Below are positions 3,585-61,817 of a stretch of DNA of 64,000 nucleotides, piece by piece; within the stretch, counting starts at the first letter, position 1, and the number at the start of each line of letters is the position of its first letter. The translations under genes and the position numbers were made by a program. The DNA lies in assembly GCA_963745745.1 (NCBI GenBank), contig CAVUYS010000072.1, positions 5,167 through 69,166 on the forward strand. Reading direction: 5' to 3'. The notes beneath the pieces were generated by a model. That model worked only from the letters and a program-made list of their open reading frames with translations. It made no database searches and was not told where the DNA came from. This DNA comes from an uncultured Spirochaetota bacterium. Lineage in GTDB: Bacteria > Spirochaetota > Spirochaetia > SZUA-6 > DRHE01.

Positions 3585-3673
3585 GAGTTAAGCCCCTCCG
3601 TGATGATTATGGGTTGAAAGGTGTCAGGTGACTCAGCGTGAGGCAGGAGCAAAGGACTCAACTTCCGGTTGCG

Positions 3674-10387: not shown

Positions 10388-10405
10388 GGCCGCGGTGCAA
10401 TCGCA

Positions 10406-11542: not shown

Positions 11543-11555
11543 ACGCTCTCCCGGC

Positions 11556-11584
11556 TTGACAAACCACTCCCGGCACGGTAGATT
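11556..11584 (+). promoter_or_regulatory. Sigma70-like promoter candidate for the RNHCP-rsgA unit
   Basis: TTGACA (11556-11561), a 17-nt spacer, then TAGATT (11579-11584). It lies in a 244-bp intergenic gap. Confidence 0.4.
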
Positions 11585-11786
11585 TCCCAGTACTACCTGC
11601 TTCAAAGGAGGTCGTTCATGTCCATTGCCGCTCCTCGGGATGCCCTGCAATAGGGAGCGAATCCTTCTTCGCTGAATCTCCCGCCGGTTTCGCCGCTCCC
11701 TGACAGGACATCCATCCAGTACAACTCGTTCTACATCGTAGCAGGACGGCCGTTCGCCGTCCTGCGGGCAACATCGAGGTACTTGA

Positions 11787-13225: not shown

Positions 13226-13249
13226 GCGGGGAGCCGCGCCTTACCCGCC

Positions 13250-14236
13250 TTACCGCCCCGGGGAGCCCTCCGGAGGACCCTCTGCAGGTTCCTGCGCCGC
13301 CTCGGCGCCCGCTTCGGCCGCCGGGGCTCCCGCCCCCAGGGGGGCCCGCCGGCGCGCCAGCCGGCTCTCCAGCACCGCGTAGAGGATCAGGGCCAGGACC
13401 GTGGCGAAAAAGGGCATGGCCAGCAGGAGCCCGGCCGGGATGCTGGAGGTGGTCTGCAGCAGGTTGCTCAGGTACTCCACGAAGCCGAACACCAGGGAGC
13501 CGATCAGGATGCCCAGGGGCGTGCGGTTGCCCAGGTAGATGATCACCAGGGCGATCCAGCCCCGCCCGGAGGTGACGTTGGGCACGAAGGCGCCCAGCGT
13601 CAAGGTCAGGGAGGCGCCCCCCAGGGCGCAGGCGAAGCCCGAGATCAGCAGCGCGGCGATGTGCATCCCGCGCACGTTGATGCCCAGCGCCCGCGAGGCC
13701 TCCGGGTCCTGGCCGACGGCCCGCAGCCGCATGCCGAACGGCAGGCGGTAGATGACCAGGTAGGCCGCCCCCAGCAGGACCCAGGAAAAGTAGGTGAGCA
13801 GGTTGTGGCCCGACAGCAGCTCGCCCAGGACGGGGATGGAGGAGATCCCGGGGATGACCAGCGGCTCCAGGGTCGGCATGCCGGGGAAGGTCACCGAACC
13901 GGTCTGGCCGTAAATCTTGAAGGAGAGCACGATCGAGAGCGCCGCGGCCAGCAGGTTGGTGGCCAGCCCGCAGATGAAGATGTTGGCCCGCAGCCCCAGA
14001 GCGATGCCGCCGAAAACGGCGGTGAGCAGGAGGGTGGCCGCCACGCCCGCCAGCACCCCCAGGAACAGGTTGCCGGTGGCCACGGTGAACACCACGGAGA
14101 AGAACGCCGAGTTCAGCATCAGGCCCTCGAGGGCGATGTTCAGCATGCCCGCCAGGGAGGAGAACAAGCCGCCGGTGGCGGCCAGCAGGAACGGGGTCAT
14201 GATGGCGATGGTGTCGCCGATGGCCTGCAGGCTCAC
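13250..14236 (-). CDS. ABC transporter permease (BMP/nucleoside-type, second permease)
   Basis: The GTG start at 14236 overlaps the upstream stop (GTGA). The 328-aa polytopic protein contains NIALEGLML and RLRAVGQDPEASRALGINV. Confidence 0.9.
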   Translation of the reverse strand: MSLQAIGDTIAIMTPFLLAATGGLFSSLAGMLNIALEGLMLNSAFFSVVFTVATGNLFLGVLAGVAATLLLTAVFGGIALGLRANIFICGLATNLLAAALSIVLSFKIYGQTGSVTFPGMPTLEPLVIPGISSIPVLGELLSGHNLLTYFSWVLLGAAYLVIYRLPFGMRLRAVGQDPEASRALGINVRGMHIAALLISGFACALGGASLTLTLGAFVPNVTSGRGWIALVIIYLGNRTPLGILIGSLVFGFVEYLSNLLQTTSSIPAGLLLAMPFFATVLALILYAVLESRLARRRAPLGAGAPAAEAGAEAAQEPAEGPPEGSPGR

Positions 14237-15273
14237 CCGTTCAACCTCCGCCGGAAAAAAGCCATCGCCGCCTCGGCGGTGATGAGGTAGAAGATCACCG
14301 ACTGGATGATCGCCGCCAGCTCGAAGGTCACGTCCGAGTTGATCATGGCCGCCTTGGCCCCGGCGGACAGGTAGGCGTACAGCAGCGCGGCGGGGACCAC
14401 GGCCAGCGGGTTGTTGCGGGCGATCAGGGCCACGGCGATCCCGTTCCAACCCAGGCCGGCGGTCAGGTCGGTGAAGCAGGACTGGTAGCGGCCCACGACC
14501 TGCACCGCGCCGCCCAGGCCGGTGAGCCCGCCGGAAAGGACCAGGGGCAGCACGAAGTACTGGCCGACGTTGATCCCGCCGTAGCGGGCGAACTGCCGGT
14601 TGGAGCCGGAGGCCCGCAGCTCGTAGCCCAGGTGCGTGCGGTAGACCAGGAAATACACCGCGCCCGCGGCGGCCAGGGCCAGCAGCAGGCCGGAGTGCAG
14701 GAACGACGGCGGGGCCAGGCGGGCCAGCATGAAGCGGGCCGGTATGGACACCGACTCGATGGTCATTTTCTGCGGGTTGCGCAGGGGTCCGAGGATCAGG
14801 TAGTTGATCACGTAGACCACGCCGCTGGACAGCAGGTAGGTGGTCAGCAGCTCGCTGACGTTCCAGCGCCGGCGCAGCACCCCGGAGAAGCCCGCCAGCA
14901 GCCCCCCGGCCAGGGTCCCGCCGGCCAGGATGGCCAGGACCCCGAGGGCCCGGGGCGCGGCAGGGATGGCGATCCCCAGGACCACGGCCACGAGGGCGCC
15001 GGAGAAGATCTGCCCTTCCCCCCCCAGGTTGGTCACCCCGCTGTTGAAGGCCAGGGCGATGCCCAGCCCGGTGAACATCAGGGGAACGCTGGATTCCAGC
15101 ATGTTGAACAGGGCGTAGCGGCTCAGGAAGGGCCCGAGGAAGTAGTAGTACAGAGTCTGGCCCGGGTTCTTCGAGAAGACGAAGATCAGGGCCACGGCGA
15201 TGGCGAAGGAGGCCAGGATGGCGGCCAGCACCGTGAGGAAGGAGGCCAGCCCGAGCTGGCGGTTGCGGTTCAC
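14233..15273 (-). CDS. ABC transporter permease (BMP/nucleoside-type, first permease)
   Basis: Intact 346-aa polytopic ORF containing TNLGGEGQIFSGA and ELRASGSNRQFARYGGINV. Confidence 0.9.
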   Translation of the reverse strand: MNRNRQLGLASFLTVLAAILASFAIAVALIFVFSKNPGQTLYYYFLGPFLSRYALFNMLESSVPLMFTGLGIALAFNSGVTNLGGEGQIFSGALVAVVLGIAIPAAPRALGVLAILAGGTLAGGLLAGFSGVLRRRWNVSELLTTYLLSSGVVYVINYLILGPLRNPQKMTIESVSIPARFMLARLAPPSFLHSGLLLALAAAGAVYFLVYRTHLGYELRASGSNRQFARYGGINVGQYFVLPLVLSGGLTGLGGAVQVVGRYQSCFTDLTAGLGWNGIAVALIARNNPLAVVPAALLYAYLSAGAKAAMINSDVTFELAAIIQSVIFYLITAEAAMAFFRRRLNG

Positions 15274-27850: not shown

Positions 27851-27980
27851 CTGATCAGGGGCACCGGCTGCAGGGTGCTCAATTTTCAGCCCCTGCTGGA
27901 CGGCTCCCCGATATGGGGCTATCTTGCTGGGAGCCGCTGCGGGTGGAAAACATGTTTCGAAAGCCCACGAGGATTGACTC

Positions 27981-29237
27981 ATGAAGAAGCCCCAAGAACG
28001 CTACGACTTCGGCGGAGTCCCTGGCAACCTGGTGCTCCTCGTCCTTCTCCCCGCCATCGTGTATTACCTGTACTTCTGTCTGCGCTTCAACGACGGCAGG
28101 CTCTTTCCAGCGGGGGTGAGCCGCCAGGAGCTGCTGGCATTCTGGAAGGACATCGTCCCCACGGGCAGGGCCTTCATGACCTACGGGATCTGGATCGGTT
28201 TCCAGGCGCTGCTCCAGGTTCTCTTGCCCGGCAGGAAGGTGCACGGCCGCCTGCTCGAAGCGGGAATGCGTCTGAGCTACCGCCTGAACGGCCTGGCCTC
28301 GTTGCTCATCACCATCGGGGCGTATTGGACGCTGGTTCTGACCGGAGTCGTCGATCCAAGGGCGGTGTTCCGCGGAATCGGCCCCTTGATTTCGGCAGCC
28401 ATGATTTTCGCCTATTCCTTCAGCCTCTTTCTATACCTCTATGGCCGCCTGGGCTCCCCAAAGCAGGCAGTCCCCGCGAGCGAGCTTCACCGCTTCTTCA
28501 TGGGATACTCCCTCAACCCCCGGATCGGGAGCTTCGACCTCAAGCTTTTCTTCGAAGCCAGGCCGAGCCTCATCGGCTGGATCATCCTCACCTGGGTGTA
28601 TGCGGCCGTGCAGTACCAGAACACGGGGGTCGTGAGCAGGTCCATGGTGCTGGTCTGCCTGTTCCAGTTCGCGTACGTCCTGGACTACTTCATTCACGAA
28701 GAGGCGATTCTCTCCACCATGGACATAGTGCACGATCACTTCGGGTTCATGCTCTGTTTCGGCGATACCGTGTGGGTGCCCTTCACCTACTCGGTGCAGG
28801 CCTATTACCTGATCAGCCGGGGGAAGACCCTCGCCCCATGGGCGATGGTCCTCTTTGGCCTTCTTTTCGCGGCCGGCTATCTGTTCTTCCGGGTCACCAA
28901 TCTTCAGAAGCATCGCTTCCGGAAGGATCCGTCCCGTCCGATATGGGGACGTCCGCCGGAGTACATTCAGACCGCTCAGGGCAACAGGCTGCTGGTGTCC
29001 GGGTTCTGGGGGTGGTCCCGGCACTTCAACTACGTGGGAGACATCCTGATGGCAGCGGCTTGGTCTCTTCCCTGCCTGTTTGGCTCGCTCCTGCCTTATT
29101 TCTATCCCCTGTACTTCGCCGTCCTGCTGATCCACCGGGAACGGAGGGACTACCGGCGCTGCCTGTCGAGGTACGGGAAGGCCTGGGAGGAGTACTGCCG
29201 GCGGGTGCGGTGGAGAATCCTCCCGGGGATCTATTAG
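27981..29237 (+). CDS. ERG4/ERG24-family sterol reductase, closest in pattern to C-14 sterol reductases (ERG24/TM7SF2/LBR)
   Basis: Intact 418-aa polytopic ORF with N-terminal YDFGGVPGNL. The C-terminus LLVSGFWGWSRHFNYVGDILMAAAWSLPC...LLPYFYPLYFAVLLIHRERRDYRRCLSRYGKAWEEYCRRVRWRILPGIY is nearly collinear with the animal TM7SF2/LBR C-terminus as I recall it. Confidence 0.85.
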   Translation: MKKPQERYDFGGVPGNLVLLVLLPAIVYYLYFCLRFNDGRLFPAGVSRQELLAFWKDIVPTGRAFMTYGIWIGFQALLQVLLPGRKVHGRLLEAGMRLSYRLNGLASLLITIGAYWTLVLTGVVDPRAVFRGIGPLISAAMIFAYSFSLFLYLYGRLGSPKQAVPASELHRFFMGYSLNPRIGSFDLKLFFEARPSLIGWIILTWVYAAVQYQNTGVVSRSMVLVCLFQFAYVLDYFIHEEAILSTMDIVHDHFGFMLCFGDTVWVPFTYSVQAYYLISRGKTLAPWAMVLFGLLFAAGYLFFRVTNLQKHRFRKDPSRPIWGRPPEYIQTAQGNRLLVSGFWGWSRHFNYVGDILMAAAWSLPCLFGSLLPYFYPLYFAVLLIHRERRDYRRCLSRYGKAWEEYCRRVRWRILPGIY

Positions 29238-29815
29238 GCGAATCCTCGCGAGAAGGGGTTCGGGCGCCACATCCGCACCGCCAGGAGCAGGGGGATCAGC
29301 TTGTAGGGGAGGTTGTACAGCAGGAACTTCCCCGGGCGAAGCACGGCCAGCGACGGGGTGAGGCCCTTCTGCGCCAGCTCCGCCGCAGACTTCACCCCCC
29401 CGGCGCCCATCATCTCGAACAGCGCCAGGTCGCCGGCAAACTCCACGACCAGCAGAACGATCATGCTCTCGATGATCATCCCCGCGTAGAGCAGAGCAAA
29501 GGGGCGGATCCAGTTTTTCCCTGTGACGAAGGCCACGACCAGTACGATGTAGAAGGGCCCGAAGAGAAACGCGGAGATGGCGGTCATCGCCCGCAGGAAG
29601 GTGGGGTTGGCGATGAGCAAGGGATCGTTGCCCAGGGCGTAGGAATGATACACCGCCCGAGCCCAGAAGTAGCTGCTGTTGGGGTCGGGCCTGGCCACGG
29701 CGTTGACCAGGTCCGCCGCGAACGAGGTGAACACGAAGGCGGAAAAGACGATGATGAAGATCCAGTCGTAGCCGCGCTGCCTCAGTGGCAGGCTCTTCGC
29801 ACTGACAGTTTCCAT
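29234..29815 (-). CDS. EXPERA-domain (TMEM97/sigma-2, EBP-like; DUF2781) four-TM protein
   Basis: 193 aa. GNDPLLIANPTFLRAMTAISAFLFGPFYIVLVVAFVTGKNWIRPFALLYAGMIIESMIVLL aligns by eye to human TMEM97 [61 protein letters not shown]. The C-terminal YNLPYKLIPLLLAVRMWR matches YAPYLLIPFILLIFMLR. Confidence 0.7.
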   Translation of the reverse strand: METVSAKSLPLRQRGYDWIFIIVFSAFVFTSFAADLVNAVARPDPNSSYFWARAVYHSYALGNDPLLIANPTFLRAMTAISAFLFGPFYIVLVVAFVTGKNWIRPFALLYAGMIIESMIVLLVVEFAGDLALFEMMGAGGVKSAAELAQKGLTPSLAVLRPGKFLLYNLPYKLIPLLLAVRMWRPNPFSRGFA

Positions 29816-29824
29816 AATACCTCC

Positions 29825-29844
29825 GCAGCCTATGCATAGGCTGC
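29825..29844. promoter_or_regulatory. Perfect 20-bp palindrome abutting the EXPERA gene ribosome-binding site
   Basis: GCAGCCTATGCATAGGCTGC equals its own reverse complement. On the minus strand it is followed directly by GGAGG, tatt and the ATG at 29815. A second inverted repeat, CCATAG..CTATGG, lies at 29844-29869. Confidence 0.6.
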
Positions 29845-29890
29845 CATAGTATCGGGCTTGTGTCTATGGCTACTGCGTGAGGCCCGGCTC

Positions 29891-46320: not shown

Positions 46321-47673
46321 CTACCCCGGCAGCAGCCAGCGCAAGGCGAACTGCCAGAGGGTCACCCCGGCCAGCACCAGCAGGGCGGGGGCGATCAGGC
46401 TGGACAGGCTGCGCAGCAGCCGGATCTTGAAGTACTCCGCGGTGACCACCAGGCAGATGTGCACGGGGGACAGCAGCTCCCCCATGAAGCCGAAGCCGTA
46501 GGCCAGCACCGTGGTGGCGGCCAGCCTGCCGAAGGACGGGGAAGGACCCAGCAGGCTCAGGGCCAGGGGGAAGGTGGCCCCGACGTAGCCCACCGTGCTG
46601 CCCATGGTGAACCCGGCGATGAAGGGCAGGAAGGCGATCAGCAGCGCATCCGGGATGCCGAACAGGGCCAGCTCGCTGCGCAGCAGGGCCACGGGGAACA
46701 CTCCGTCGGGAAGAGGCGCCTCGATCACCGCGCCGTAGACGCGCACGACCACCACCAGCAGGGTGATCTGCAGCGCGCGCCAGGAGAAAACGGCCTGCAC
46801 CCAGGCGCTGAGCGGCAGGCGCCGCTGCCACTGCAGCACCGCCAGCGCCAGGACCAGCCCCGCGGCCATGGGCACGTAGCGGCTCAGCCTCCGCAGGCCC
46901 GGGGAGAGCAGCTGCAGCAGGGCGAAGACCACCACCACGACCAGGATCGGAGCCACCAGGCTCAGGAAGGAGCGGCGGGGACCGGGCGCCGGCGCGAGCG
47001 GCCCGCGTGCGGCCGTGCCTTCGGCCCCGCGCTCCCTGCCCTGCCCGCCCCGCCCTGGGATGCGGCGCAGCAGGAGCAGCGCCCCGCTGCCGGCGGCGAT
47101 CAGGGTCACCGGCAGCTGGACCAGGATGAACTGCCAGATCTCCAGGCGGGTCAGCTCCAGGGCCAGGATCACGCCGGGGTACAGCGGCCACCAGTACTCC
47201 CAGATGTGCCGGAACCAGTGGTTGGTCTGCGTTTTCAGCAGGCCGCTCAGGGAGCGCTGCGGGTCGGCGCTGTCCACCATCGGGGCGGAAAACAGCGCCC
47301 CGCCGGGCATGGGCAGGAAGCCGATCACCGCGGGCAGCGCGGCGAAGGCCAGGCGCCGGGGCACGCGCGAGCGCACCGCCTCCACCAGGTCGCGCATCAC
47401 CCCGCCTTCGGCCATCAGGCTGCTCAGCCAGATCACCAGCAGGAGCACCGCGATCAGCAGCAGGTTGTCCGGCGAGCGGAAGCGCTCCCAGGCGATCGCC
47501 CCCACGTCGGGCAGGCGGTGCCCGAACCAGAGTCCCAGCAGGAGCGTGCCGGCCAGCACCGAGACCAGCAGCTCCTTGACCAGGCGGTTGACCAGCAGGA
47601 TCAGGGCCAGGGTGACCAGCACCTTGACCAGCACGGGCACGGCCGACAGGGAGGTCCAGAGCGTCCAGGGCAT
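46321..47673 (-). CDS. DUF401 family membrane protein
   Basis: 450-aa polytopic ORF containing GFLPMPGGALFSAPMV and TQTNHWFRHIWEYWWP, typical of DUF401. Confidence 0.75.
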   Translation of the reverse strand: MPWTLWTSLSAVPVLVKVLVTLALILLVNRLVKELLVSVLAGTLLLGLWFGHRLPDVGAIAWERFRSPDNLLLIAVLLLVIWLSSLMAEGGVMRDLVEAVRSRVPRRLAFAALPAVIGFLPMPGGALFSAPMVDSADPQRSLSGLLKTQTNHWFRHIWEYWWPLYPGVILALELTRLEIWQFILVQLPVTLIAAGSGALLLLRRIPGRGGQGRERGAEGTAARGPLAPAPGPRRSFLSLVAPILVVVVVFALLQLLSPGLRRLSRYVPMAAGLVLALAVLQWQRRLPLSAWVQAVFSWRALQITLLVVVVRVYGAVIEAPLPDGVFPVALLRSELALFGIPDALLIAFLPFIAGFTMGSTVGYVGATFPLALSLLGPSPSFGRLAATTVLAYGFGFMGELLSPVHICLVVTAEYFKIRLLRSLSSLIAPALLVLAGVTLWQFALRWLLPG

Positions 47674-47736: not shown

Positions 47737-50700
47737 CTAAAACTGCAGCCGCGCGCTCAGGCGCAGCTCCAGGCCCAGCGCCGGCTGGCGGGTGCTCCTG
47801 CCGCCTTCGATGCGCTCCTCCACCCCGCCCATGGCCTTGAACGAGAAGCCCAGCTCCACGCCCCGGTCCACGGTGAGACGGCTCTGGTGGGTCACCGCCA
47901 CGCGCAGCGGCACGACGCGGGTGAGAGCGGTGGCCGCGCGGTCGGTGGCCAGCAGCTGGTTTTCCACCTCCAGCCACTCCTCGTGCACGATGCGCTCCTG
48001 CGCGCCCGGCCCCCGCAGCAGGGAACGCAGGCGGGAGGCCCGGGAGGCCACCGGCTGCTCCCAGAGGTAGCGCAGGTCCAGCACGCTGCGCAAGCTGTCG
48101 CTGTCCGGTCGCGACGCGACGGGCAGCTCGCCGGCCGGCTGGCCCGGGAACAGGTACAGCCGCTCGTCCCCCACCCGCTGACGCTCCTGCGAGTAGCGCA
48201 AGCTGTGCTCCGCCCGCAGCCTGCCCCGCAGCCGCCCTCCCGGTCCGGGGGCCAGCTCCAACCGGGTGATCGTGTCCAGGCTGCGGGAGCGCACCTTGCT
48301 CGAATAGTCCCAGGACTCCTCCCAGGCGGCGTCGAGGGCCAGCCGGTTGCCCTCGGCCTTCGGCTGGACCAGGTCCTTGCCCAGGCTGAAGCGCAGCCGG
48401 CGCTTCTGGGCGTGGGCGGCGCCGTCGCGGGAGGTGTCCCCGATGGCCAGGGCCCCGGCGCGCGAAGGCAGGAACCAGGGCTCCGAGCGCAGCCGGACTT
48501 CCAGCCCGAGGGTTTCCTGGAACCCCGCCGACGAGCCGCCCGCCACTCGGGCGCTGCCGGTCAGGGCCTCGACGGCCTGGTGCTCGTGCAGGCGCCCCAG
48601 GTCCAGCCGGGGGCTCAGGTAGTACAGGGGCAGGCGGAAGAGAGGCAGGAGGCCCTCCGCCAGCAGCGGCGCCTCGCCCAGCCCCTGGTCCACGCGACGG
48701 TAGCTGCCGCTGAGATTCCGCGAAGCCTTGGGCGTGAGCTCCAGCAGCCCCTGTCCGCCGGGGCTGAACGGCAAGGCCAGGCCGAGGGCGCCTTGAACGC
48801 TCGCATCCCGCGCGCCCGCCGCCCGGTCCGCGTTCCACTCCGCGTAGCCGCCCTCCAGGTCCAGGTTCGCCCCCAGGTACCGCTGCCGCGGCAGCTCCAG
48901 CCGGAGGCTGGCCTTGTCCGAGCGGCCGCTGCGCCAGGCGCCCGGGAGGGCCTCTGCCGCCGGGAGGAACAGCGAGGCCAGCTTGTCTGCGTAGGACTTC
49001 CCCAACCCCGGAGGCGGCGCGGGGCTGTCCGTGACCAGCAGGTCCTCTCGCAGCGCCTCCACCGCCAGCGCCCCCGCCGCCAGGGCCAGGGTGGCGCTGC
49101 CCTGCAGGCGCTGGGTGAGGCTCTGGGATTGGCCGGTCGAAACCACGGGCCCCCCCTCGGCCTGCTCGCTTTGGCCCTCGTAGCGCCAGGTGCGGGAATA
49201 GGAGTAGGACTGCACCAGGGACTCGGGAAAGCGGTAGTCGGCGGAGAAGGCCAGGGACTCGCTCACCGTCCGGGCCTGCCGGTACACGTACTCCGTCTGG
49301 GTCAAGGCCAGGCGGTCGTCGGTGCCCTGCGTGCGCTGGTAGGAGTGCTCCAGCGCGGGCAGCCAGGCGATGCCCGTGTCCAGCCCCAGTCGCTGGGAAA
49401 AGGTGCCGGTCTGCGTCCCGCTTTGCGCGGAGCGGGACTCGGCGCCAGAAAGCTGCAGGGATACCGGCATCACCCCCAGGAGCCGGGCTTCCAGGCCGCC
49501 GGAGTACCTCTGCTGGCTCCGGCCGGGCTGGTCGGCCAGGCCGCCCTCCGCCCGCTCGTAGGCGCCGCTGAGGTACGGATCGCTCACCAGCGGCACCTGG
49601 CCCGCCGACAGCAGGTCGCCGCGGAAGCCGATCCGGCCTTGTCCGTAGACGCCCGCCTCCAGGCCCCAGCGGCTCTCCCGCAGGTGCCATTCATCCAGCC
49701 AGAATTCGAAATCCGTGCCGGCGCCCAAGGGGACGCCCGGCGGCGCGGCGATGGTGAAAAGGACTTCCGTGACCGTACGCCAGACTTCCAGGCTGCCGGT
49801 GCGCTGCAAGGTGCCGGTCAGGGTGCCGTCGACGCGCACATTCGTAGGGTTCCTCCAGGCGGACGCTCACCTCGTTCCAGCCCTCGTGGAAATCCGTCGG
49901 GCTGAAGGCCGCCGAAGCCCTTTCCAGCGCGTTGGCCAGGAACTCCAGGCGGAGCTCCGCGGCGGCGGGAAAGCTCTGCCCCGCCGGCAGGTACACGTAC
50001 AGGCGGAACTCGCGGTAGGGGGAGAAGTCGGTCGGCACCGGGAAGCGGCGGCGGACGCTCACCGACTGCCCCGCGGCCAGCGTCGGGGTGAACACCGCCG
50101 CCAGGCTCTTCTCCACGTAACCCTGCTCCTCGCGGTAGGCCGGCCGCCCGTGCAGCTCCGCGTACACCTCGGGGTAAGCTGCCGAGAAGGAGGCGCTGTC
50201 CTTCTCGGTCAGCGCCAGCCGGGCGGTATCGGTGCTTTCCGGGCCGGCCGCGGAAAACCAGATGCCGTTCACCAGCAGCTGGCCCGTCACTTCGGCCGCC
50301 CCCGGAGTGACGGGCTTCACCGTCAGGCGCAGCGCCTTGGCTCGCTGGAAGGCCGCGGCCTTGGCGGGGTCGGCGATCAGCTCGCTCAAGTCCAGGCTGA
50401 CCAGCCTCCAGTCGCTGTCGCCCAGCGCCACCGAGCCCAGCTCCAGGGGCCCCAACGCCGGGGCCAGCACGGCCCCTTTCTCCTGGTCCAGGGCGAACGG
50501 CCCTACCGGGTCCAGGGTCGCGCTGCCGTCCAGGTCCTCGGAGTCCAGGCGCCCGTCAGCCTCCCCGAGACGGTCGCTGCCCAGCATCGTAGCCGACCCG
50601 TCCAGCGGGGTGATCGCGAAGCCCGCCTGGGCGCTGGAGGATTCCCCGTCCAGCGCGTCGTCCCCGTCCAGGTCCTCCTGGTAGGCCTGGAGCAGCTCGG

Positions 50701-52843
50701 CGTACAGCAGCACGGCGTCCCCGCTCAGGCCGCGGCCTCGCAGCAGCACGTTGAGGTGGGTGTAGTCCTGGAGGTTCACCGCGGGCAGCCCGGTGGCGGC
50801 GGTGACGTAGCCCTCGGGAGCGGCTGCCGGGATGCGGAAGTCCAGCACCAGGGAGCGGTCCTCTCCTCCCGTGGTCTGGTCCGCGCTGTTGTACGGTCCC
50901 GCCTTGCGGAAATAGTCCAACTGGGGATTGCCCGAGTTGTCCCAGAATACCTCGTGCAGCAGGTCCCCCCCCAGCAGCCGGCGCTCCCAGAGGTTCTCGT
51001 AGCGCAGCTCCCCCCGGCTTTCCAGCGCAACGGCGGCGGCGGGTAGCAGGCCGGAGCGCGAGCCCAGGGTCCAGCCGCTTTCCCGGATGCTCACCGTGTA
51101 CCGGCGCCCGTCCTCCATGTCGGCCACGACGGCCTCCCCGCGGCTGTTGGTCGTGGCCAGGGAAAGTGCGGCTCCGGCGCGCAGCTCCCCCTCCGGGCCC
51201 CGGCCCTCGCACGGCCCGAAGCGCAGGCTCAAGTCCGTGCTGTTGGACAGGTCGCTGGCCCGTTCCTCGCCCAATTGGGGGGCGACCGGTTCGCGCACCG
51301 GCAACGTGTAGGTCGTCAGGTTGGCCGCCTGCAGCCAGCCCCGGTCGTACCCCACCCGCACGGCGGCGAACAGCTCCCCGTCGCCCTCCCCGGTGGGCGC
51401 GTAGCGATAGCTCACCTCCACCTCGCTGGCCGGCCCGAGCACGCCCGGGTGGAAGGAAAGGATGCCCGCGGCGTAGTCCGCCGTGTAGGCGGAAGCCCCG
51501 GCGGGCACCCCGTCGACGGTCACCTTCAGGCTGCCTTCGACCAGGTCGAACTCCAGGAAAAAGCTGTCCGCGCTCGCCGTGTAGCGCAGGAGCAGGGTGT
51601 TCAGCGAGGCGGACTGCCCCGGGTAGCCCAGGCCTCCGTAGACCGGGTTGTCCTCCGCGAAGGGGTTGTCCGCCGGGAAGGGCTGGTCCCCCGGGAAGGG
51701 ACGCGGATAGAAACCCGCGGCGTCGCGGAAGGCGAACAGCAGCGCCCCGAAGTACGGGTCCACCGTGAAGTCCGCCAGCAGCCCGGCGTAATTCTCATTG
51801 GCCGCGCCGGTTCCGGTGAAGAAGAGGCTCACCGTGAGGTCCGCGGGCGTTCCCCCTCCGGCCAGCTCCCCCAGGAAGTAGGCGTTGCGCATTTCCCAGT
51901 AGCTGTTCAGGTCGTTCTTTTTCAGGTACAGGAACAGGGGCGGGATCCCGGCGTCGAAATACTGCGGGTGGCTGGCGGAGCTGAAATCGGCGCGCGTGCC
52001 GGCGGGATCGATGATCGCCTCCTGTCCCAGCACGGGATCGCCGACTCCGACCCCGGCCTTGGTGTAGGTCACGGCCAGTTCCTCCGTCGCGGCCAGGGAG
52101 CGCTGCAGCGAAAGGCGCGCGGTGGCGTTGTCGAAAAAGTAATCCGTCTGGCGGGCCAGCAGGGCGAAGGGCTTGCCGTCGATCAGCGCATCGGGAATCC
52201 CGGTGGGGCTGCTGCGGTACACCCGCAGGCTGGCCTCCTCCAGCCCCGCATCCGGCAGAAGGAAGAAACGCGCCCGGGCATAGTCCACGTCCAGCAGCCG
52301 GGTTTCCAGCACCCGGCGGCTGCCGCGGAAGCTCTTGCGCCCCTCCTGGGATACCCCGTAGCGCAGCAGCGCGTCCCCGCTGAACCTCCCTTTGGCCAGG
52401 CTGACCCGCAGCGCGAAGGTCTGCGGGTTGCCCGCGTCAATGGGCACGAAGCGGGTGCCCGGTATGGAGAGGTACTTGTTGCCGATGGTTACCTCGCGCA
52501 GCAGCTCCCCTTCCTCGCCACGATAGCGCAGGGAATAGAGATTGCCGCCCAGGAGCGAGAAGTAATCGTTGCGCGTTGCGTCGAAGTCGATCTCGGCTAC
52601 GAGGCGCTCGTGCAGCGCCCTTTGCAGCAGCACGCGCCGGATCAGGTGGTCCAGGTCCAGGCCTTCCAGGATGCCCTCGGCCGCATCGGCGGCCAGGAAG
52701 CCAGAGCCCGCGGGCACGCCGAAACCGTAGCCCAGGTCCAGCTCGATGATCCCCAGAGAGGCCAGCTCCCCGTCCTCGGCCTCTGCGGGGAAGATGGCCG
52801 CGGCGCACAGCGCCGCGGCCGCCAGGAAAGTGCGGGCTTTCAG
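47737..52843 (-). CDS. Giant (~1,700 aa) exported outer-membrane protein. The function call is tentative: a possible distant SprA/Sov-like T9SS translocon relative. One frameshift near 49842.
   Basis: A signal-peptide-like N-terminus LKARTFLAAAALCAAAIFPAEA precedes the first listed start. ORFs 49691-52717 and 47737-49839 join at VRLEEP.. / VRVDGTL. Acidic DxDGDD-type loops are present. The C-terminus ends ...LGLELRLSARLQF, a beta-signal-like ending. Length is 5107 nt, one base more than a multiple of 3. Confidence 0.55.
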
Positions 52844-55203
52844 AAGCTGATCGACACCCCGATGGTGTGCTGCAGGCCGTAGTCCGGCAAGGGCCGGAAG
52901 GAATAGTCGACTGTGTATTCGGTGAATCCCAGAGCAAGGCGGATTCCCGCCCCCGCGGAGAAGCTGCGGTCCACCGCGCCGAAGGTGTATCCCAGGCGCG
53001 CGTAGGCCAGGTCGGCGAACACGTATTCCAGGCCCGCTCCCACCGACAGCGCGTCATGGAACGGCAGGTTGAACTGGCCGGCCAGCTTCAGGTTGTGGTT
53101 CTGCACGTTCACCAGGGCGTAGCCCACCGCGGTGCTGAAGGAGGCCGGCAGCGGGTAGGCCTCGCTCACGAAGGTCATGGGCGAGCCGCCGTTGCGCACC
53201 CCCAGGTTCACCGAGGTGTTCAGGTAGGGCTTGTCGGTCTGCAGGTAGACCAGGCGCATCCTGCGCCGCTCCTCCTTGATGTCCGCCAAGGCCCGCTCCA
53301 GGCCCTTGTCCTGCGTTGCGGAGAACTCCGCGGCCTGCTCGTCCAGGTCCGCCAGGGCCTGCTTGTAGGCCGCCTCCTTCTGCTTCTGCTCCTCCTTGAG
53401 GGAGGGGTCGTCGGGGGATTCCCGCAGCCCTCCGGGCCAGCAGCCGCTGGTCGAAGGCCTGGTCGTCCTCCAGGGTCTCGCGGGTCTTCTGCTGCTCGGC
53501 CTCGAAATCCAGTCAGGCGCAGCTCCGCCTCCTCCCTGGCCGAGGCGATGCGCGCCTGGAAGATCTTCTCCTCGTTGCCGTACATGGCGGCCAGCAGGCG
53601 CAGGTACAGCCGCTTCTCGGCCTGCTTATAATCGGCCTGCGCCTTGTCCAGTCCCTTCTGCTTGCGGGCGCTCAGGAGGTCCAGCTCCCGCCTCAGCTTG
53701 GCCTTCTTCAGCTCGCGGGCCAGCTCCGCGCGCAGCTCCTCGAAGCGCTTGATCTCCTTTTCCACCCTGGCCCCGGCTTCCTGGATTTCCTGCTCGCTGG
53801 CCTGGTCCATGGCGGCCATGTCCGCCTCGCTCTGCTGGATCTCCGCGTTCTTGACGGTCACGCGGTCCCCGAGGCGCTTCAGGTAGGGATCGGTCAGCAG
53901 CCCTTGCAGCTCCTTGTCGCTTGCAGCGATCTGCTTGTCCAGCTCCGTGATCCGCGGCTTGTTGGCCTTGGGATCGGCCCGCTCCAGGGAGGCCTTCTCT
54001 TCCTTCAGGGCCTGGATCTCGCCGGAAAGCTCGGCGCGGCGCGGCCCGACCTCGGCCTGGATCTTCTCCTCGTAGCCGGCGATGGCCTGGCGGGCGCCTT
54101 CGATGCGCTCGCCCCGCCGCTGGTCATAGGCTTCATTGCGCGCCTGCACCGCCGTGGTCTTCTCCTCCAGCAGCTCCCGGGTCCTGGCGATGCTGGAGTC
54201 CACGTTGTCATTCAGCATTTCCTCCGCGAGCTCCTGGGCCGGGTCGTCGATCACCGCGAACAGCCGCTGCCGCTCCTGTTGGATCCAGTCCAGGTTCTGC
54301 ACCTTGGCGTCGAAGCGGGCCTGGGCCGCGGCGACATCCGCCTCGTACCACTGCTGGATTTCCGCCACGGCGGCCTGCTCCTCTTCCTGGGCCGCGGCCA
54401 GCTCCTGCCGTTTCTGCGCGAGGGCTGCCTCGTTTTCATCCTTTTTCGCCTGCAGGGCGGGCAGCTTGGCCTCGTCGGCTTTCTGGAGCTGGGCGCTCAA
54501 GTCCCCGGAGGTCTTTTCCAGCCCCGCGACCTCCTTCTGCACCAGTGCCGACTTCCGGGTGGCCTCGGCGGTCTTCTTGGCCTTCTCCGCTTCAATGCCC
54601 TTCTGGTCCTTCTCCAGCTCGGCCTCCAGCTGCTTGAGCGTCGGCGGCTTGGGACGCTGGCCGATGTGCGGGGTCTCGAACCAGGCGGCCGCCCCGGCGT
54701 CGCCGGCAAAGGCGAAGGCATTGTAGTCGCCCAGGGTGCTGTAGATGCCCTTGGCGCTCAGGCCCACGGAGACGCTCTTCCATATGTAGCGGGAATAGCT
54801 CAGGATCGCGGCCGCGTCGTAGATGCTGACCGTAGCTTCCGCCTGCCCGCTCCCGTTGACGAAAGTAAACCCGCCGGTGTTCAGCAGCTGAACGCCAGCA
54901 GCCGCAGTTCCCCCGAGCAGCGGAAAGCCCAGCGCCAGCGCGCTGTGGGTCACCTCGTTGGGCAGCGGGCTCATGTTGAGGAGCAGTCGGAACTTCGGGC
55001 ACGGCCGCGAGCACCGCCGGATTGTAGTACAGGCCCTCCAGCTGCGTGCCCAGGGCGTCCAGGACCCCGCCCATGGAGTCGGAGCGGGCGGCCGGCGGGG
55101 CGATCAGGAAGTCCGCGGCGGTGGTCCCTTGTGCCATCAGCAAGCCGGGAACCCAGGCCAGGATCAAAGCCAGCCAGTTGGCCTTCAGCAGGTTGCGCTT
55201 CAT
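52840..55203 (-). CDS. PorV/PorQ-family-like outer-membrane barrel interrupted by a ~470-aa coiled-coil insertion (three frameshifts, net in frame)
   Basis: Signal peptide MKRNLLKANWLALILAWVPGLLMAQ. Then TAADFLIAPPAARSDSMGGVLDAL...LYYNPAVLA, the PorV-type N-terminal motif. The C-terminus is TEYTVDYSFRPLPDYGLQHTIGVSISF. The middle region (about 53256-54660) is E/K/Q/A-rich heptad-like sequence. Frame changes occur near 54985, 53513 and 53435. Confidence 0.6.
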
Positions 55204-55219
55204 TGCTTGCTCCTATTCT

Positions 55220-57738
55220 TCAGCGGACGATCAAGACTTTTAGGGTCTGCTTGACCCCGGCCGCAATGATCTGCACGAAGTACAGCCCGGGACCGAGAGC
55301 CTGCCCCTTATCGTTGGTGCCGTCCCAGGGGATCGGCACGGTAACCGAGCTGAAGGCCCTGTTCTTGAAAAAGTGCGCACCAGCCTTCCGGAAGTGGTGA
55401 AGACCTGCACGCTGACCTTGTCCGTGGGGTTCACCTGCGGTACGAAGATCAGGCACTGGCTCGCGCCCCCATCGGCGCCCAGGCGGTTGTTGGTTATGGT
55501 GGCCTGGGTGAAGCCGAAGGTGGTGAAGGTCCAGGTCTTGCTCGCGCTCAGCGCCGTGCCCTCCGTATCGGTGATTCCCGTGCTCACCGTCACCCTATAT
55601 TGCTTGAGGTAATCCAGCGGCTCAGCCGGCGTGAAGGTGGCGGTGTTGCTGGAGCCGGCGCTGGGCGAGAGGGTCCCGGCAACCGGCGACGCCGTGGCCT
55701 CCTCCACGATTGTGATGTTGCCTGTCAGGCTCGAAGCCAGGACCTGCTTGGAGAACACCACCTGGATGGTGCTGGTGATCGGGATGGCGGCGGCGTTTTC
55801 GGCCGGCGTGACGCTCAGCACCTGGGGCGGCGTGGAGGGCATGGTCCAGAAGTCCCAGGTCTTGTTCGTGGGCGTGCCGCCGAGGATCTGGTCGGCGAGA
55901 TTCAGGCCATCACCGTCCGTGACCTGAGCGGATAGGATCCTGCAAAAGTAGTGAGTGTTGAAGAGCAGCTTGGTGCCAGGAGGATTCAGGCTCAGGGTGG
56001 CGACATAGCTCAGGTTGTCGTAGGCCGCGCTCACCGTGGCCACCTCGGTCCCGCCGGTATCCGGGTTGCCGTTGTAGAGCTTGAAGGCATTCCCCCAGTT
56101 GGCGGCGGACACATTCTCGGAGAAGGTGGCGGTGATCGTGGGTTCCAGCACGATATTGGTGTCCCCCTGGGCCGGCGAGGTGCTCAGCACGACCGGGTAC
56201 TGGGCCGGCTCCACCGTGAAGGTCCAAGTGTAGTCGGTACCCATGGCGTTGCCGTAGAAGTCCTGGACCGTGCCCTCGATCGTGGCTGTGTAGGTGATGC
56301 CCCAGTCCAGGGTCGGCAGGGTGATGACCAGGGTTTGCGTCGCTGCCGTATAGGTGAAGCTGCTCGGGGTGATCCCCCCGCTGATCGTGAAGTTAGCCGG
56401 ATTCTCCACCGAGGATTCCGTCATGTATTCGTTGAACAGCACCGTGATGTCCGCGCCCCGCAGTACTCCGGTGGCCAGGTTATCGGGCACCGTAGCGGCC
56501 ACCGATGGGGGGTTCCCGTCGTCCGCCGGGTTGATCAGGAAGGTGTTGCCCGCGATCGCCTCCGGGTCGGCGGTGGGGGAAACCACGTAGCCCTTCTGCA
56601 CATACTCCCAGGTGCCGGCAGCGGTGTAGACCAGGTAGGCGTACTCCGGGTCCGCGGCGTTGCCGATGGCATCATCGTCGATCTCATCAGCGAAGACGAT
56701 GTCCACGGACGGATCGTTGATGTTCAGGCCGAAGCTCTGCCCCACCTGGGCAGCGGCGCCGTTCATGTTGACCGCCACGAAGTAGGTCTTGCCCGCGGAG
56801 GTGATGGGGATATTGGCCGGATCCAGCAGGGCGTAGCCCCCGCTCAGGGTGGCCGACGCCACGTAGGCGCCATCACCCAGGCCGTCCGGCTCGAAAAGGC
56901 CATCTCCGTCATCAGCGTACAGGAGCACCCCCGCGGTTCCCACCCAGTTGTCCTGGCCGAAAGTCAGATGCACCCGGACCGTGTCCAGCTGCACGGGCGC
57001 GGTGGTGGCATTGACCGTGGAATCCAGGGCGTCGAAGTCCAGCCGGAGCAGCCCGACCTTGGAGGCGTTGGCAGCGGCCGTGGCCGGGCCGATCCAGGAG
57101 GCGTCCATGGTGGCCTCCAGGGTATCCGCGTTCCTCCTCTGGTTGTGAAGGATGAATTGCAGATCCGCACCTCCGACGGCCAGGGTGGTCCCCGTGCCAA
57201 CCCCGGCTGCGCCATAGGTGACGCTGGTCACCTCGCAGCCCACGGTCGTCGTGGTGTCAGCGGCATTCGTGAAGTCGAACACCACGTACAGGTACTTGTC
57301 GCCGCCGGCGAAGGGAAAGGTAACGCCGCCCGGGTTGGCAGGATTCAGCGGAATGGTGGCCGTGGTGCCGGTGAAGGTGTGCACCCCCCCGGTGTCCACT
57401 ACCACGTCGTCGATGCCCGCCCCATTGTCGTACTCGGCGTTGCCGCCGTTCTCGAAGTACACCCGGATGTCGCTGATGGCGGTGGAAGCGAAGGCGCCGT
57501 CGCTGGTCATGCTCACGGTGATCTGCGAAATGCTGGTGGTCTCCCCGGAGTTCTGCGGTTTCACCCCGAGGCGGACCATCCCGATGCCAGTGGCCCCCGC
57601 CGTAGGGTGGATGGGGATCGACAGAGGAGCGATCGAGATGTGGCTGCGCACGTCCAGGGTCTGGGCGGCGACCCAGCCGGCGGCGCACGACATGAGCAGC
57701 ACGACAAGCACGGCCCGTTTTCTTGACATACCTTGCAC
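55220..57738 (-). CDS. Surface protein with three SbsA/Big_5-like Ig domains and a T9SS/FlgD-Ig-type C-terminal sorting domain (one frameshift at a T-run near 55375)
   Basis: Signal peptide SRKRAVLVVLLMSCAAGWVAAQ. There are three ~95-aa modules, each ending WTFTV, WDFWT or WTFTT. The C-terminus VSVQVFTTSGRLV + RTFFKNRAFSSVTVPIPWDGTNDKGQALGPGLYFVQIIAAGVKQTLKVLIVR is recovered by adding one T to a T5 run. Confidence 0.75.
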
Positions 57739-57846: not shown

Positions 57847-59881
57847 TTAGCGGGCGGTGCGGATGTTGACCACCGACGGCACGGTGCGCAGGCTCTTCAT
57901 CACCTTGCCGAAGTCCCCGGCGTTGTCCAGCTCCACGGTGAAGAAGCCCTCCAGGACGTCCAGCCCGCCGTCCTCGAGCTTTCCCTCGATGAGGTGGCCC
58001 TTGAACTTCCGCAGCGCGCCCTCGATCTCGGAGAACAGGTTGCGCGCTCGCGCGGGCGGTGACCTGGAAGCGCCGGGTGGCTTTCGGGGACACGGTCTCC
58101 CACTCCACCTCGACGTGCCGCTCCTGCGAAGTCCTGGATGAGGCGCATGCTCGGGCAGTCGGCCCGGTGCACGATGATCCCCCGCCCGCGCGACACGTAG
58201 CCGACGATCGCGTCGCCGGGGCCGGCGGGCAGCAGCCGGCGATGCGGATCATGAGGTTGCGCTCCTCGCCGATGCGCACGCCGACCTTGCTCTGGTCGCA
58301 GGATGCGGGTTTCCGGCTCGGCGGGCTTCTCCGCGGCCGCTTGGGCGGGGCGGGCGCGGGCGGCGTCGGCGCTTCTTCGGGCCACGATGTTGCGGTCGAA
58401 GATCAGGTCCGGCTCGTTCAGGGCCAGCCAGTGCCGGATCTTCGAGCGGGCCCGGTGCGTCTTGGCCGAAGCGCAGCCAGTTCAGGTGCGGGCGCGCGTT
58501 GCTGGGCGGTCACGATCTCGATGACCTGGGTGTTCGCCAGCTGCTCCTTCAGCGGGATGATGCGCCCCGTCGGCCTTGGCCGCCAGCGCAGTGGTTGCCC
58601 GATCTCGGTGTGGATGTGGTAGGCGAAGTCCAGGGCGGTGGACCCCTAGGGCAGCTCGATCACGTCCCCCTTGGGGGTGAACACGTAGATCGAGTCCTTC
58701 GAGCAGCTCGCGCTTGATCTCGTCGAGGAACTCGCGGCGAGGCCGACGCCGCTGGGTCCCAGCTCCTTCAGCTTGTTGATGAGGGTGAGCTCGCTCGGCC
58801 TTGACGGCCCGCCCGGCGGCAGTCCGGCTCTTGTACAGCCAGTGGGCGGCGATGCCGTTCTCGGCGGTGCGGTGCATCGCCTGGGTGCGGATCTGGATCT
58901 CGATGCATCTTGCCGCTCGTAGCCCATGACCGTGGTGTGCAGGCTCTGGTAGCGGTTGGACTTCGGCATGGCGATGTAGTCCTTGAACCGGCCCTCGATG
59001 GGCATCCAGAGCTTGTGCACCAGTGCCCGAGCAGCTCGTAGCACTGGCCCGTGGTGTCGCACAGCAGGCGCATGCCCAGCAGGTCGTAGATCTCCTCCAG
59101 CGGCTTGCCCCGTCTGCCTCATCTTCTGGTAGATCGAGTAGAAGTGCTTGGCGCGGCGTCTCGACCTGCGATCGGGATGCCCGCCGCCGCGGCCTCCCGG
59201 TGATCGCCTCGCTCACCCGGCCTGCAGGTAGCCGCTCCCGGTCGCTCTTGCGCTCGGCCACGCAGCTGCCGGATCTGCTCGTAGACCCGGGGGTTGAGGT
59301 GCTTCAGCGACAGGTCCTCCAGCTCGTCCTTGATGCGCGAGATGCCCAGGCGCCCGGCCAGCGGCGCGTAGATGTCGAGGCATCTCGGTGGCGATGCGCT
59401 TGCGGCTGGTCCTCCTCGCAGGTACTCCGAGGGTGCGCATGTTGTGCAGCTTGTCGGCCAGCTTGATCAGGATCACCCGGATGTCCTTGACCATGGCGAA
59501 GAGCATCTTGCGGATGGTCTCGGCCTGCTGGGCGGTCTTGCTCATGCCCGCGGATCGGGAGATCTTGGTCACCCCCTGCACCAGGGCCTCCACCTCCTTG
59601 CCGAACTCCTTGCGCAGCTCGCGGCGGGTCAGGCTCGGTGTCCTCCAGCACGTCGTGCAGGAGCGCGGCGATCACCGTCTGGGCGTCCATGTGGGCGTCC
59701 ACCAGGATCGCGGCCACGGACAGCGGGTGCATGAAGAAGGGCTCGCCGGAGGCCCGCTTCTGCTCGTGGTGCAGGCCATCGGCCCAGCGCAGCGGCGGAA
59801 AGGATGCGCGCCCGGTCCTCCTCGGAGTAGCGCTCCGAGCTTCCCGGTGAAGCCCTGTTTCAGGGGGCCCAGATCGCTCAT
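57847..59881 (-). CDS. rel: Bifunctional (p)ppGpp synthetase/hydrolase RelA/SpoT homolog (at least six frameshifts as assembled)
   Basis: HD domain: [44 protein letters not shown]. Synthetase pieces: [17 protein letters not shown]. The TGS domain ([14 protein letters not shown]) and a C-terminal ACT-like end are scattered over ORFs 59304-59939, 59213-59593, 58482-59261, 58646-59122, 57900-58385 and 57800-58279. Confidence 0.85.
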
Positions 59882-60741
59882 CGGGAGCCTCCCGCGGATC
59901 ACCCGCGGCCTGTCCGCCCAGGTCCGGCACCACCTCCACCTCCTGGAAGCCCCAGGCGAGCAGGCGCTGGCGGACGAAGGCCGCCTGGGCGGGGTCGGCC
60001 TCCAGCAGCAGGAAACCGCGCGGGGCTCAGCCGGGCGGGGGCCTGGCGGATGAGCGGCGGCCAGCAGGGCCGTGCCGTCCCGGCCGCCGGCCAGGGCCTC
60101 CCGGGGCTCGGGCCAGCCGACCTTCCGCATGTCCTCCACCTCCCCGTCCCGCAGGTAGGGCGGATTGGCCGTGATCAGGTCATAGGGACCGGGCACCTGC
60201 TTCAAGCAGGTCGGAGCGGTAAGAAGGGCAGCTCGCGGCCCAGGAGGCGCCGGCAGTTGAGGCGGAACACCTCCTCGGCGCCGGGGGAGAGGTCGGAGGC
60301 GGAGACCTCCAGGCCGGCGCGGGAGTGCTGCAGGGCGATGGCCACGCAGCCGCTGCCCGTGCAGGCGTCGTGCACCCGCAGGGCCTGGCCCGCCGCCGCG
60401 CGAGCGTCCAGCAGGCGCAGGGCCTCCTCGACCAGCGCCTCGGTGTCCGGGCGGGGCACCAGCACCCGCTCGTCCACGTAGAACTCCAGGCCGAAGAACT
60501 CCTTTCGCCGCCGGATGTAGGAGACGGGGATGCCCCGGCAGCGCCGGTCCAGGAACTCCTGGAAGCGCTGCCAGCCCTCCTCCTGGACCGGGGCTCGTCG
60601 GGCAGCGGGCGAGCAGCTGCTCCTTGCGCAGGCCCAGCGCCTCGCGCCAGCAGCACCGTGGCGTCCAGCAGGGGCGTGTCGACCTCGGCGTAGAACAGGG
60701 TGGACTGGCCGCGCTGCGAGGGCGGCTTGCACGGTGATCAT
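59882..60741 (-). CDS. prmC: Release-factor glutamine N5-methyltransferase PrmC/HemK (frameshifted; 3' end unresolved)
   Basis: The ATG at 60741 overlaps the prfA stop. Motifs seen: GIPVSYIRRRKEFFGLEFYVDERVLVPRPDTE, DACTGSGCVAIAL and ITANPPYL. As assembled there is no in-frame stop before the rel start. Confidence 0.8.
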
Positions 60742-61817
60742 GTGCTCTCGCGCTTTTCGAGGTACTCCTCCCGGGCGTTGAGCTTCAGCGCCTCGATGAA
60801 CTCCTCGAGGCTGCCCTTCATGACCTGGTCGAGCTTGTAGAGGGTCAGGTTGATGCGGTGGTCGGTGAGCCGGTTCTGCGGGAAGTTGTAGGTGCGGATG
60901 CGCTCCGAGCGGTCGCCGCGAGCCGACCTGGCTGCGCCGGACCTGCGGCCCGCTCGGCCTGCTTGCTCTCCTCCTCCGCCTCGAACAGGCGGGCGCGCAG
61001 GACGCGCAGGGCCTTGGCCTTGTTCTTGTGCTGGCTCTTCTCGTCCTGGCAGATGCACCACCATGCCCGAGGGCAGGTGGGTGATGCGCACCGCCGAGTC
61101 GGTGGTGTTCACGCTCTGGCCGCCCGGGCCGCCGGAGCGGAACACGTCGATGCGCAGGTCCTCCTGCTTGATGTCGATCTCGGTCTCCTCCACCTCCGGC
61201 AGCACCGCCACGGTCACCGCGGAGGTGTGGATCCGCCCCCCCGCCTCGGTCACGGGCACGCGCTGCACCCGGTGCACGCCGCTCTCGTAGCGCAGGTTCT
61301 CGTACACGCTCTTGCCGGTGATCGAGAAGACGATCTCCTTGAAGCCGCCGATCTCGGTCTGGTGCGAGGACAGGATTTCCACCGTCCAGCCGCGCCCTTC
61401 GGCGAAGCGGCTGTACATGCGGAACAGGTCGGCCGCGAACAGGGCCGCCTCCTCGCCGCCGGTGCCGGCCCGGATCTCCACGATGATGTTCTTCAAGTCC
61501 AGCGGGTCCTTGGGGATCAGCAGGTTGCGCAGCCGGGCGGCCAGCGCCTCCTCCTGCTCCGCGAGGCCCTTCAGCTCCTCGCGGGCCAGGCCGGCCATCT
61601 CGTTGTCCCCGCCCTCCTGGGCCAGCTCGCGGGCCTGGGCCATCTCCTCCAGCAGGCGCCGGTAGCGCCCGTACTCCTCCACCAGCTCGCTCAGGCCCCC
61701 CAGCTCCCGCATCAGCTCGGCGTACCTCTTCTGGTCCCGTATCACCGCCGGGTCGGCGGTCAGGACGGTGAGTTCCTCGTAACGTTTGGCGCGCGCTTCC
61801 AGCTTGTCCAGCATCAA
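60738..61817 (-). CDS. prfA: Peptide chain release factor 1 (three single-base insertions, net in frame)
   Basis: The motifs [25 protein letters not shown] and [12 protein letters not shown] are intact. The segment [17 protein letters not shown]...ARSARGD reads correctly ([36 protein letters not shown]...SQVGS) only in the other frames. Confidence 0.95.

Follow-up and report, generated by a model that had tools for sequence, protein, structure and literature searches.

The described system closest to the locus studied here is the T9SS (type IX secretion system) translocon core of Flavobacterium johnsoniae, formed by the SprA pore, the PorV carrier and a type-A C-terminal sorting domain (CTD) substrate (PDB 6H3I, 8GL6 and 8GL8; Lauber et al. 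2018, 2024, PMC10994853). In the literature searched, T9SS are placed only in Bacteroidota or the wider Fibrobacteres-Chlorobi-Bacteroidetes (FCB) group, and no T9SS was found outside it. Spirochaetes are known to encode barrels of the PorV/UPF0164 type (PF19572 or PF03687), which are 14-strand, FadL-like proteins with an N-terminal plug region and have no known link to an SprA-like gene or a CTD cargo. The same 14-strand superfamily includes the FadL-family channels (TodX, TbuX, FadL), which are associated neither with a giant barrel nor with any sorting-domain protein. Spirochaetal PorV-family proteins appear in the literature searched only as FadL-like barrels, and we found there no account of SprA-like proteins, or of the operon described below, in Spirochaetota. 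We analyzed a 64-kb stretch of DNA (positions 5,167 to 69,166 of contig CAVUYS010000072.1; hereafter the window) from an uncultured, high-GC member of the Spirochaetota. Three consecutive genes on its minus strand, between 47737 and 57738, encode a predicted cargo (G1), a PorV-like carrier (G2) and an SprA-like pore (G3).

Our analysis suggests, with a probability of about 0.7, that this triad is an outer-membrane export or display operon homologous to the T9SS translocon core. The same three roles are represented by homologous proteins, and all three proteins carry Sec signal peptides, as they do in F. johnsoniae (those of G1, G2 and G3 are signal-peptide-like N-termini judged by inspection). 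The differences are nevertheless substantial. The triad belongs to Spirochaetota and the canonical T9SS to Bacteroidota. The pore is ~1,700 aa long against ~2,400 aa for SprA, about 700 aa shorter, and is unseen by TIGR04189 and the Pfam SprA models. The carrier has a ~460-aa helical insertion, lacking in canonical PorV, at the turn equivalent to PorV residues 193-199. Unlike in the canonical system, the cargo, carrier and pore genes are joined in one tight operon, and no genes for PPI, Plug, SprE, Skp, GldKLMN or PorU/Z are found nearby. On the sequence and model evidence presented here, the triad is probably a novel form of this translocon core, encoded as one operon and coming from outside Bacteroidota/FCB.

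G1 (55220 to 57729, minus strand) encodes a predicted secreted surface protein of ~836 aa, counted from an ATG at 57729, with a signal peptide at about 57729-57660 on the same strand. No family match was found for its N-terminal ~430 aa. Three Big_5 Ig-like domains (PF13205, E 2.9e-49) lie at about 56511-55510, and the protein ends in a type-A T9SS CTD of FlgD-Ig-like fold (55223 to 55491, minus strand), whose last residues are GPGLYFVQIIAAGVKQTLKVLIVR. The Por_Secre_tail model TIGR04183 matches this domain at the extreme C-terminus with 25.6 bits (cut-off 23), and the orthologue in locus L021 scores 22.2 bits. The original prediction, made from the letters of the window, had proposed an Ig-repeat surface protein ending in a T9SS/FlgD-Ig-type domain, and this description holds; PF13860 (FlgD_ig), which it had named as a check, scored 24.3 bits on G1, below its cut-off of 27. 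The CTD is strongly conserved among seven orthologues, with a terminal LKV(L/M)(I/V)VR motif, and its weaker database relatives bear PF18962 and PF13860. A search with the CTD profile for further cargos returned almost exclusively short fragments.

G2 (52840 to 55203, minus strand) encodes a PorV/PorQ-family outer-membrane barrel of 786 aa after frame correction, which begins with a signal peptide and has Phe as its last residue. The PorV_fam model NF033709 matches it with 103.3 bits (cut-off 90) in two stretches that flank the insertion, and gives 110.4 bits with the L021 orthologue. When the insertion was removed and a barrel-only profile was made from the two barrel halves together with regular PorV-like sequences, F. 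johnsoniae PorV (6h3i_F) was found among the PDB sequences at E 5.1e-33, the next solved protein being TodX at E 5e-5. Matches to the FadL-family channels (E 5e-5 to 2e-3) were far weaker than that to PorV. With a profile of full-length G2, the PDB search yielded nothing but coiled-coil noise. The second gene had been predicted to encode a PorV/PorQ-like barrel, which the family model and the profile match to PorV both support. Spirochaete NF033709 or UPF0164 (PF03687) barrels, for example Brachyspira pilosicoli BP951000_RS08455, also align with the G2 barrel halves, and these halves jointly cover ~90% of the length of the regular PorV/UPF0164-type proteins of 300-350 aa at 23-28% identity.

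The regular relatives have a short turn of 0-10 residues where G2 carries its insertion (53266 to 54650, minus strand), a conserved, alpha-helical and coiled-coil-like segment of ~460 aa between the barrel halves that was absent from the original prediction. G2 aligns end to end with intact orthologues of 788-823 aa, all of which have an insertion of similar length at the same place. With 786-823 aa, G2 and its orthologues are not the compact 14-strand barrel of ~330-400 aa with short periplasmic turns. The inserted segment is charge-rich, has many invariant aromatic and charged positions across the orthologues, and gave only weak coiled-coil/SMC-type matches. In the alignment with F. johnsoniae PorV, its site falls at residues about 189-199, and the periplasmic loop formed by PorV residues 193-199 contacts SkpA (PMC10994853). 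Because of this alignment and of the alternation of loops in the barrel, the helical arm is predicted to project into the periplasm. Its probable role is a periplasmic one that falls to separate proteins in Bacteroidota, for example as chaperone or docking site, in tethering or in force transmission.

G3 (47737 to 52843, minus strand) encodes a putative giant outer-membrane barrel of 1,702 aa when stitched across its frames, with a signal peptide, a putative CTG start and a C-terminus reading ...RLSARLQF. This agrees with the ~1,700-aa exported protein with a C-terminal Phe that had been described for the third gene. We found 31 full-length homologues of ~1,700 aa, all of them annotated as hypothetical and all from metagenome-assembled genomes (MAGs) of Spirochaetes/Spirochaetota. 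The hidden Markov model (HMM) check proposed for an SprA relationship (TIGR04189 and Pfam) gave no match with stitched G3, and a 28-sequence G3 profile made only a chance match to PDB sequences (E 1.8). Residues 79-195 of P0001, an intact orthologue that is 93% identical to G3, align to positions 148-256 of TIGR04189, with a score of 12.9 bits (E 0.011) against a cut-off of 200.

The connection to SprA runs through intermediates. A profile of G3 residues 35-1001 reaches 1,467 representative proteins at E ≤ 1e-3; among the 150 matches listed, leaving truncated entries aside, most have lengths of 1,550-2,100 aa. It finds P0103, P0097, P0147, P0088, P0056 and P0133 at E 1e-50 to 1e-98. The distant family members tested on TIGR04189 score 98-168 bits (E 3e-28 to 2e-49), with 168 bits (E 2e-49) for a protein from Leptospiraceae, 142 for one from Hydrogenedentota, 98 for one from Spirochaetia and 105-150 for the others. 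As all of them score below the 200-bit cut-off of this model, they remain unannotated, and a Pfam scan of five distant G3 relatives returned nothing. The TIGR04189 signal falls to 13-14 bits in the forms of 1,600-1,700 aa. Sequence continuity can nonetheless be followed from G3 through the intermediates to the SprA model, in a transitive chain of HMM matches. The SprA-like proteins of ~1,900-2,100 aa (P0103, P0133 and P0097, from MAGs of Leptospiraceae, Spirochaetia and Hydrogenedentota) are members of the wider G3 family (profile E 1e-50 to 1e-66); they are longer and are encoded by solo genes, with no adjacent PorV-like or CTD gene.

Structure prediction pointed in the same direction. The N-terminal part of G3 (49841 to 52741, minus strand; 967 aa, residues 35-1001) was modeled with AlphaFold2 (AF2) at a mean predicted local distance difference test score (pLDDT) of 64 and a predicted TM-score (pTM) of 0.37, so that its global arrangement is of low confidence. 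The model shows ~8 strands at the N-terminus and, at model residues 456-529, 4 long ones; among these strands lie beta-sandwich, CBM-like and Asp-rich domains, which presumably form a cap or are inserted domains. In a Foldseek search of the PDB, the top four matches of this model were SprA chains (8gl8_A, 8gl6_A, 6h3i_A and 6h3j_A; E 1.6e-22, 4.9e-22, 3.4e-18 and 9.4e-13, all with probability 1.0), followed by a match at E 1.9e-5 and probability 0.23. The C-terminal 700 aa (47740 to 49839, minus strand), modeled with AF2 from a 22-sequence alignment at pLDDT 85.5 and pTM 0.74, contain ~24-26 long antiparallel strands and in this model would make up the bulk of the barrel wall. Here too SprA (8gl8_A) was the best PDB match by both E-value and TM-score (E 1.9e-6, TMq 0.38). 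Summed over the two half-models, the strands amount to 8 + 4 + 24-26, or ~36-38, and the SprA barrel has 36 (PMC10994853). The likeness of the giant outer-membrane protein (OMP) to SprA that had been suggested earlier is thus upheld by the Foldseek ranking of both halves and by the intermediates that match TIGR04189. Taken together, the remote sequence and model evidence identifies G3 as a remote SprA/Sov homologue.

The triad is conserved. It is kept in at least eight other Spirochaetota loci across deep divergence, the conservation that the original prediction had proposed to look for. G1, G2 and G3 occur together, with G1 orthologues 5' of G2, in L001, L003, L005, L013, L017, L021 and L024, and G2 with G3 at a contig edge in L009. 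These loci span 29-93% G3 identity and have tight junctions. The association is not due to chance, as these loci reach down to 29-33% G3 identity, and in a neighbor-joining tree of G3 the genes from triad loci are spread across the deepest splits (29-32% identity). All close named G3 homologues and all 16 genome loci come from Spirochaetes/Spirochaetota MAGs.

The gene models given above depend on frame correction, and the frameshifts had gone unmentioned in the original prediction. By third-position GC, the minus strand of the ~70% GC window holds one coding path from 47737 to 57738, but this path changes frame repeatedly, its longest uninterrupted pieces being of 846, 627, 261, 1120 and 709 codons. 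The statement that three consecutive minus-strand genes occupy this interval therefore stands; analysis of open reading frames (ORFs) showed, though, that none of the three is uninterrupted. G1 (57729 or 57738 to 55220) has one shift, in a T-run at ~55369-55373, G2 (55203 to 52840) has shifts at 54994, 53515 and 53433, and G3 (52843 to 47737) has one at 49840. Could the operon be decaying, with real frameshifts and with G1, G2 and G3 as pseudogenes in this organism? At least five frame disruptions fall within 10 kb and G3 has no canonical start codon, as such a model would expect. It is nevertheless extremely improbable. L024, a short-read contig of a close relative with ~90% nucleotide identity to the window and a G3 protein 93% identical, is colinear with it (prfA-prmC-relA-G1-G2-G3-membrane protein), and every gene on it is intact. 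Compared with L024, G2 and G3 hold 4 uncompensated indels, every one of them a single extra nucleotide in the window. Some 60 additional 1-nt insertions, at far higher density, lie at 58000-61100, breaking prfA, prmC and relA, essential genes among them; RF-1, carB and trkA/trkH are likewise split in the window. Third-position GC stays at 0.84-0.93 in all stitched segments of the triad. Since the relative has intact genes and the same kind of insertion is found in prfA and relA, the frameshifts in G1, G2 and G3 are, from these sequence comparisons, best read as assembly errors and not as gene decay. The source assembly is error-prone with a bias to insertions, which makes ORF-based annotation of the contig unreliable.

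The junctions were also re-examined. The G1-G2 junction, given before as 17 nt, measures 16 nt and has GGAG inside it. The predicted 4-nt overlap of G2 and G3 requires a CTG as the start of G3 (CTGA, 52843), as no canonical codon is available there, and the description of the genes as a translationally coupled unit accordingly depends, for G2 and G3, on this non-canonical start. A TTG start of G3 overlapping the G2 stop was considered and rejected, the DNA reading CTG at this position. In L024, G3 starts at a TTG located 11 nt past the G2 stop, and the window has TTC at that site. For G1, ORF calling gives a GTG start at 57738, and a Shine-Dalgarno-like AAGGAG precedes the ATG at 57729; from this sequence context the ATG is the more likely start. 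A scan of the junctions for promoters and terminators gave nothing beyond shuffled expectation, and no RNA was found in the window with Rfam.

Several results weigh against the interpretation of the triad as a T9SS-like export operon. The G1 CTD score barely exceeds the TIGR04183 cut-off. G2 scores 22.1 bits with the PorV equivalog model NF033710 (cut-off 250) and 61.2 bits with the PorQ equivalog model NF033711 (cut-off 220), and the spirochaete PorV/UPF0164-family barrels to which it aligns have been interpreted as FadL-like transporters (bioRxiv 10.1101/2025.01.03.631275). Pfam and NCBIfam scans of G3 gave no match, with no curated SprA model significant, and no ATG, GTG or TTG stands beside its signal peptide in the window. 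The N-terminal model of G3 is of low confidence (pLDDT 64, TM about 0.28), and TonB-dependent receptors and MtrB come with E-values near that of SprA for the C-terminal model. The barrel was modeled in two separate halves, which limits what the models can show of its strand number, closure, cap and lateral opening. Canonical transport, moreover, needs a motor, and GldL/M, GldK/N, PorU/Z and SprE were all absent from the 64-kb window. Compared with a canonical T9SS, the locus has the CTD cargo, but G3 does not match the SprA model, G2 does not match the PorV equivalog, and the organism falls outside Bacteroidota/FCB.

One way to account for the absent motor is that the triad is a piece of a complete canonical T9SS, with the motor, the ring, SprE/PorW, PorU/Z and many CTD cargos encoded elsewhere in the genome, making it an ordinary T9SS in an unexpected phylum rather than a minimal module. 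T9SS genes are indeed scattered in Bacteroidota, where sprA is usually a loner (PMC4793230), the contig is at least 178 kb long and the window covers no more than 64 kb of it, and the extraction of the PorV-cargo complex from SprA needs energy input in the canonical system (PMC10994853). This is unlikely, as the literature searched places T9SS in no clade beyond Bacteroidota/FCB, as motor, ring, SprE/PorW and PorU/Z genes (PorU being the sortase) were absent both from the window and from the 10 kb on either side of G3 homologues in at least 20 related loci, with PorQ likewise absent from the window and the flanks examined, and as canonical systems have neither the insertion in the carrier nor a fixed operon of cargo, carrier and pore. 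Another alternative is that G2 and G3 are outer-membrane proteins that play no part in protein secretion: G2 would then serve hydrophobic solutes as a channel of the FadL/UPF0164 type, G3 would be a giant porin, a structural OMP or an adhesin platform, and the end domain of G1 would have a FlgD-Ig-like fold but no sorting role. The PF13860 score of G1, below the gathering threshold, would fit this model, as would the sister clade of G3 homologues that stands without G1 and G2 beside flagellar rod genes (see below) and the ~2,000-aa G3 relatives, which are solo genes. We regard it as very unlikely. Among solved structures, the G2 barrel profile matches PorV by far the best, ahead of TodX by 28 orders of magnitude, SprA is the sole strong structural match of the N-terminal part of G3, and the sorting domain of G1 lies at the extreme C-terminus and passes TIGR04183. 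It would also be hard to explain otherwise why exactly these three homologues are co-inherited across deep divergence.

If the triad is an export operon homologous to the T9SS core, a route for G1 can be proposed on the model of the F. johnsoniae system (Lauber et al., PMC10994853). G1 would be exported across the inner membrane by Sec, and its type-A CTD would then bind within the G3 barrel, to the extracellular loops of docked G2. The carrier-cargo complex would finally exit the pore, placing the Ig-repeat protein on the cell surface. The comparisons of sequences and models show that the three proteins are homologous to the T9SS parts, that the triad is conserved and where the insertion lies; that G1 passes through G3, what the arm does and what supplies the energy are inferences. 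A bolder model, which we find doubtful, is that the triad could be a complete three-gene export machine that operates without the GldLM motor and GldKN ring, either as an ancestral T9SS or as a stripped-down derivative, with the G2 arm replacing the Skp/SprE periplasmic assembly. Extraction of the carrier-cargo complex might in that case be coupled by the arm to, for example, the inner membrane, peptidoglycan or the flagellar apparatus in the periplasm. If this were true, the unannotated SprA-like family, with its ~1,500 representative clusters from Spirochaetota, Hydrogenedentota and others, would mark unrecognized T9SS-type translocons beyond the FCB group.

Standard models label the spirochaete pore proteins merely as hypothetical. 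SprA relatives forming a large family, with 1,467 representative clusters at E ≤ 1e-3, have gone unrecognized, and one lineage inherits pore, carrier and a cargo as a single operon. New profile models of the SprA-like family would improve the annotation of spirochaete outer membranes, those of Leptospiraceae included. The operon offers a natural minimal set with which to ask what core transport requires. The predicted arm occupies the point at which canonical PorV touches the extended translocon on its periplasmic side, and so bears on how the carrier receives the energy for substrate extraction.

Among the other G3-like genes, those of 11 loci form a monophyletic sister clade with no G1 or G2 nearby (L002, L004, L007, L010, L011/L019, L012, L014, L015, L016, L018 and L020, with the G3-like gene at about 10001-15200 in most). 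The gene order in this clade is flgF, flgG, an FlgJ-like rod-binding gene, the G3-like gene, an OMP of ~450 aa and a FecR/LipL45-like protein of ~690 aa. The G3-like gene lies directly 3' of the flagellar genes and overlaps the end of the FlgJ-like one, and the C-terminal half of the ~690-aa protein is homologous to the ~450-aa OMP. The latter was considered as a divergent PorV and rejected (hhalign probability 0.15). The solo genes for the ~2,000-aa SprA-like relatives each have a small STAS-domain, anti-sigma-antagonist-like gene immediately 5' (L023 4051-4389, L025 9608-9943 and L026 9593-9865), and in L025 and L026 zapA follows the SprA-like gene on the opposite strand. L008 (CP070696.1), although labeled as a chromosome, is made of ~3.3 kb pieces joined by 100-N spacers and is not contiguous; only a fragment of G3 is readable in it, and its G2-like proteins are annotated as partial.

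In the window, no por, gld or spr family was found among the ~40 ORF fragments scanned across the 64 kb; these fragments are of housekeeping or transport function, in line with the original prediction of no other por/gld genes. At 46321-47673, on the same strand as G3 and 63 nt 3' of it, lies a gene for a polytopic membrane protein of the TIGR00529 family (AF0261-like; 182 bits against a curated cut-off of 378), which has the same position in L024. The first 4 kb of the window (1-4000) have 40-47% GC against ~70% elsewhere and contain a fragment of an AAA_21/AAA_15 (Abi/OLD-like) ATPase at 861-1472 on the plus strand; this segment may be an island of foreign DNA or a chimera produced in assembly. 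Genes for sterol modification are uncommon in bacteria. An ERG4/ERG24-family sterol reductase (27978-29234, plus strand; PF01222, E 2e-115) is encoded in the window tail to tail with an EBP/EXPERA-family protein (29237-29863, minus strand; PF05241). The two genes lie in a patch of 60-62% GC within the ~70% GC genome, and the pair may have been horizontally acquired.

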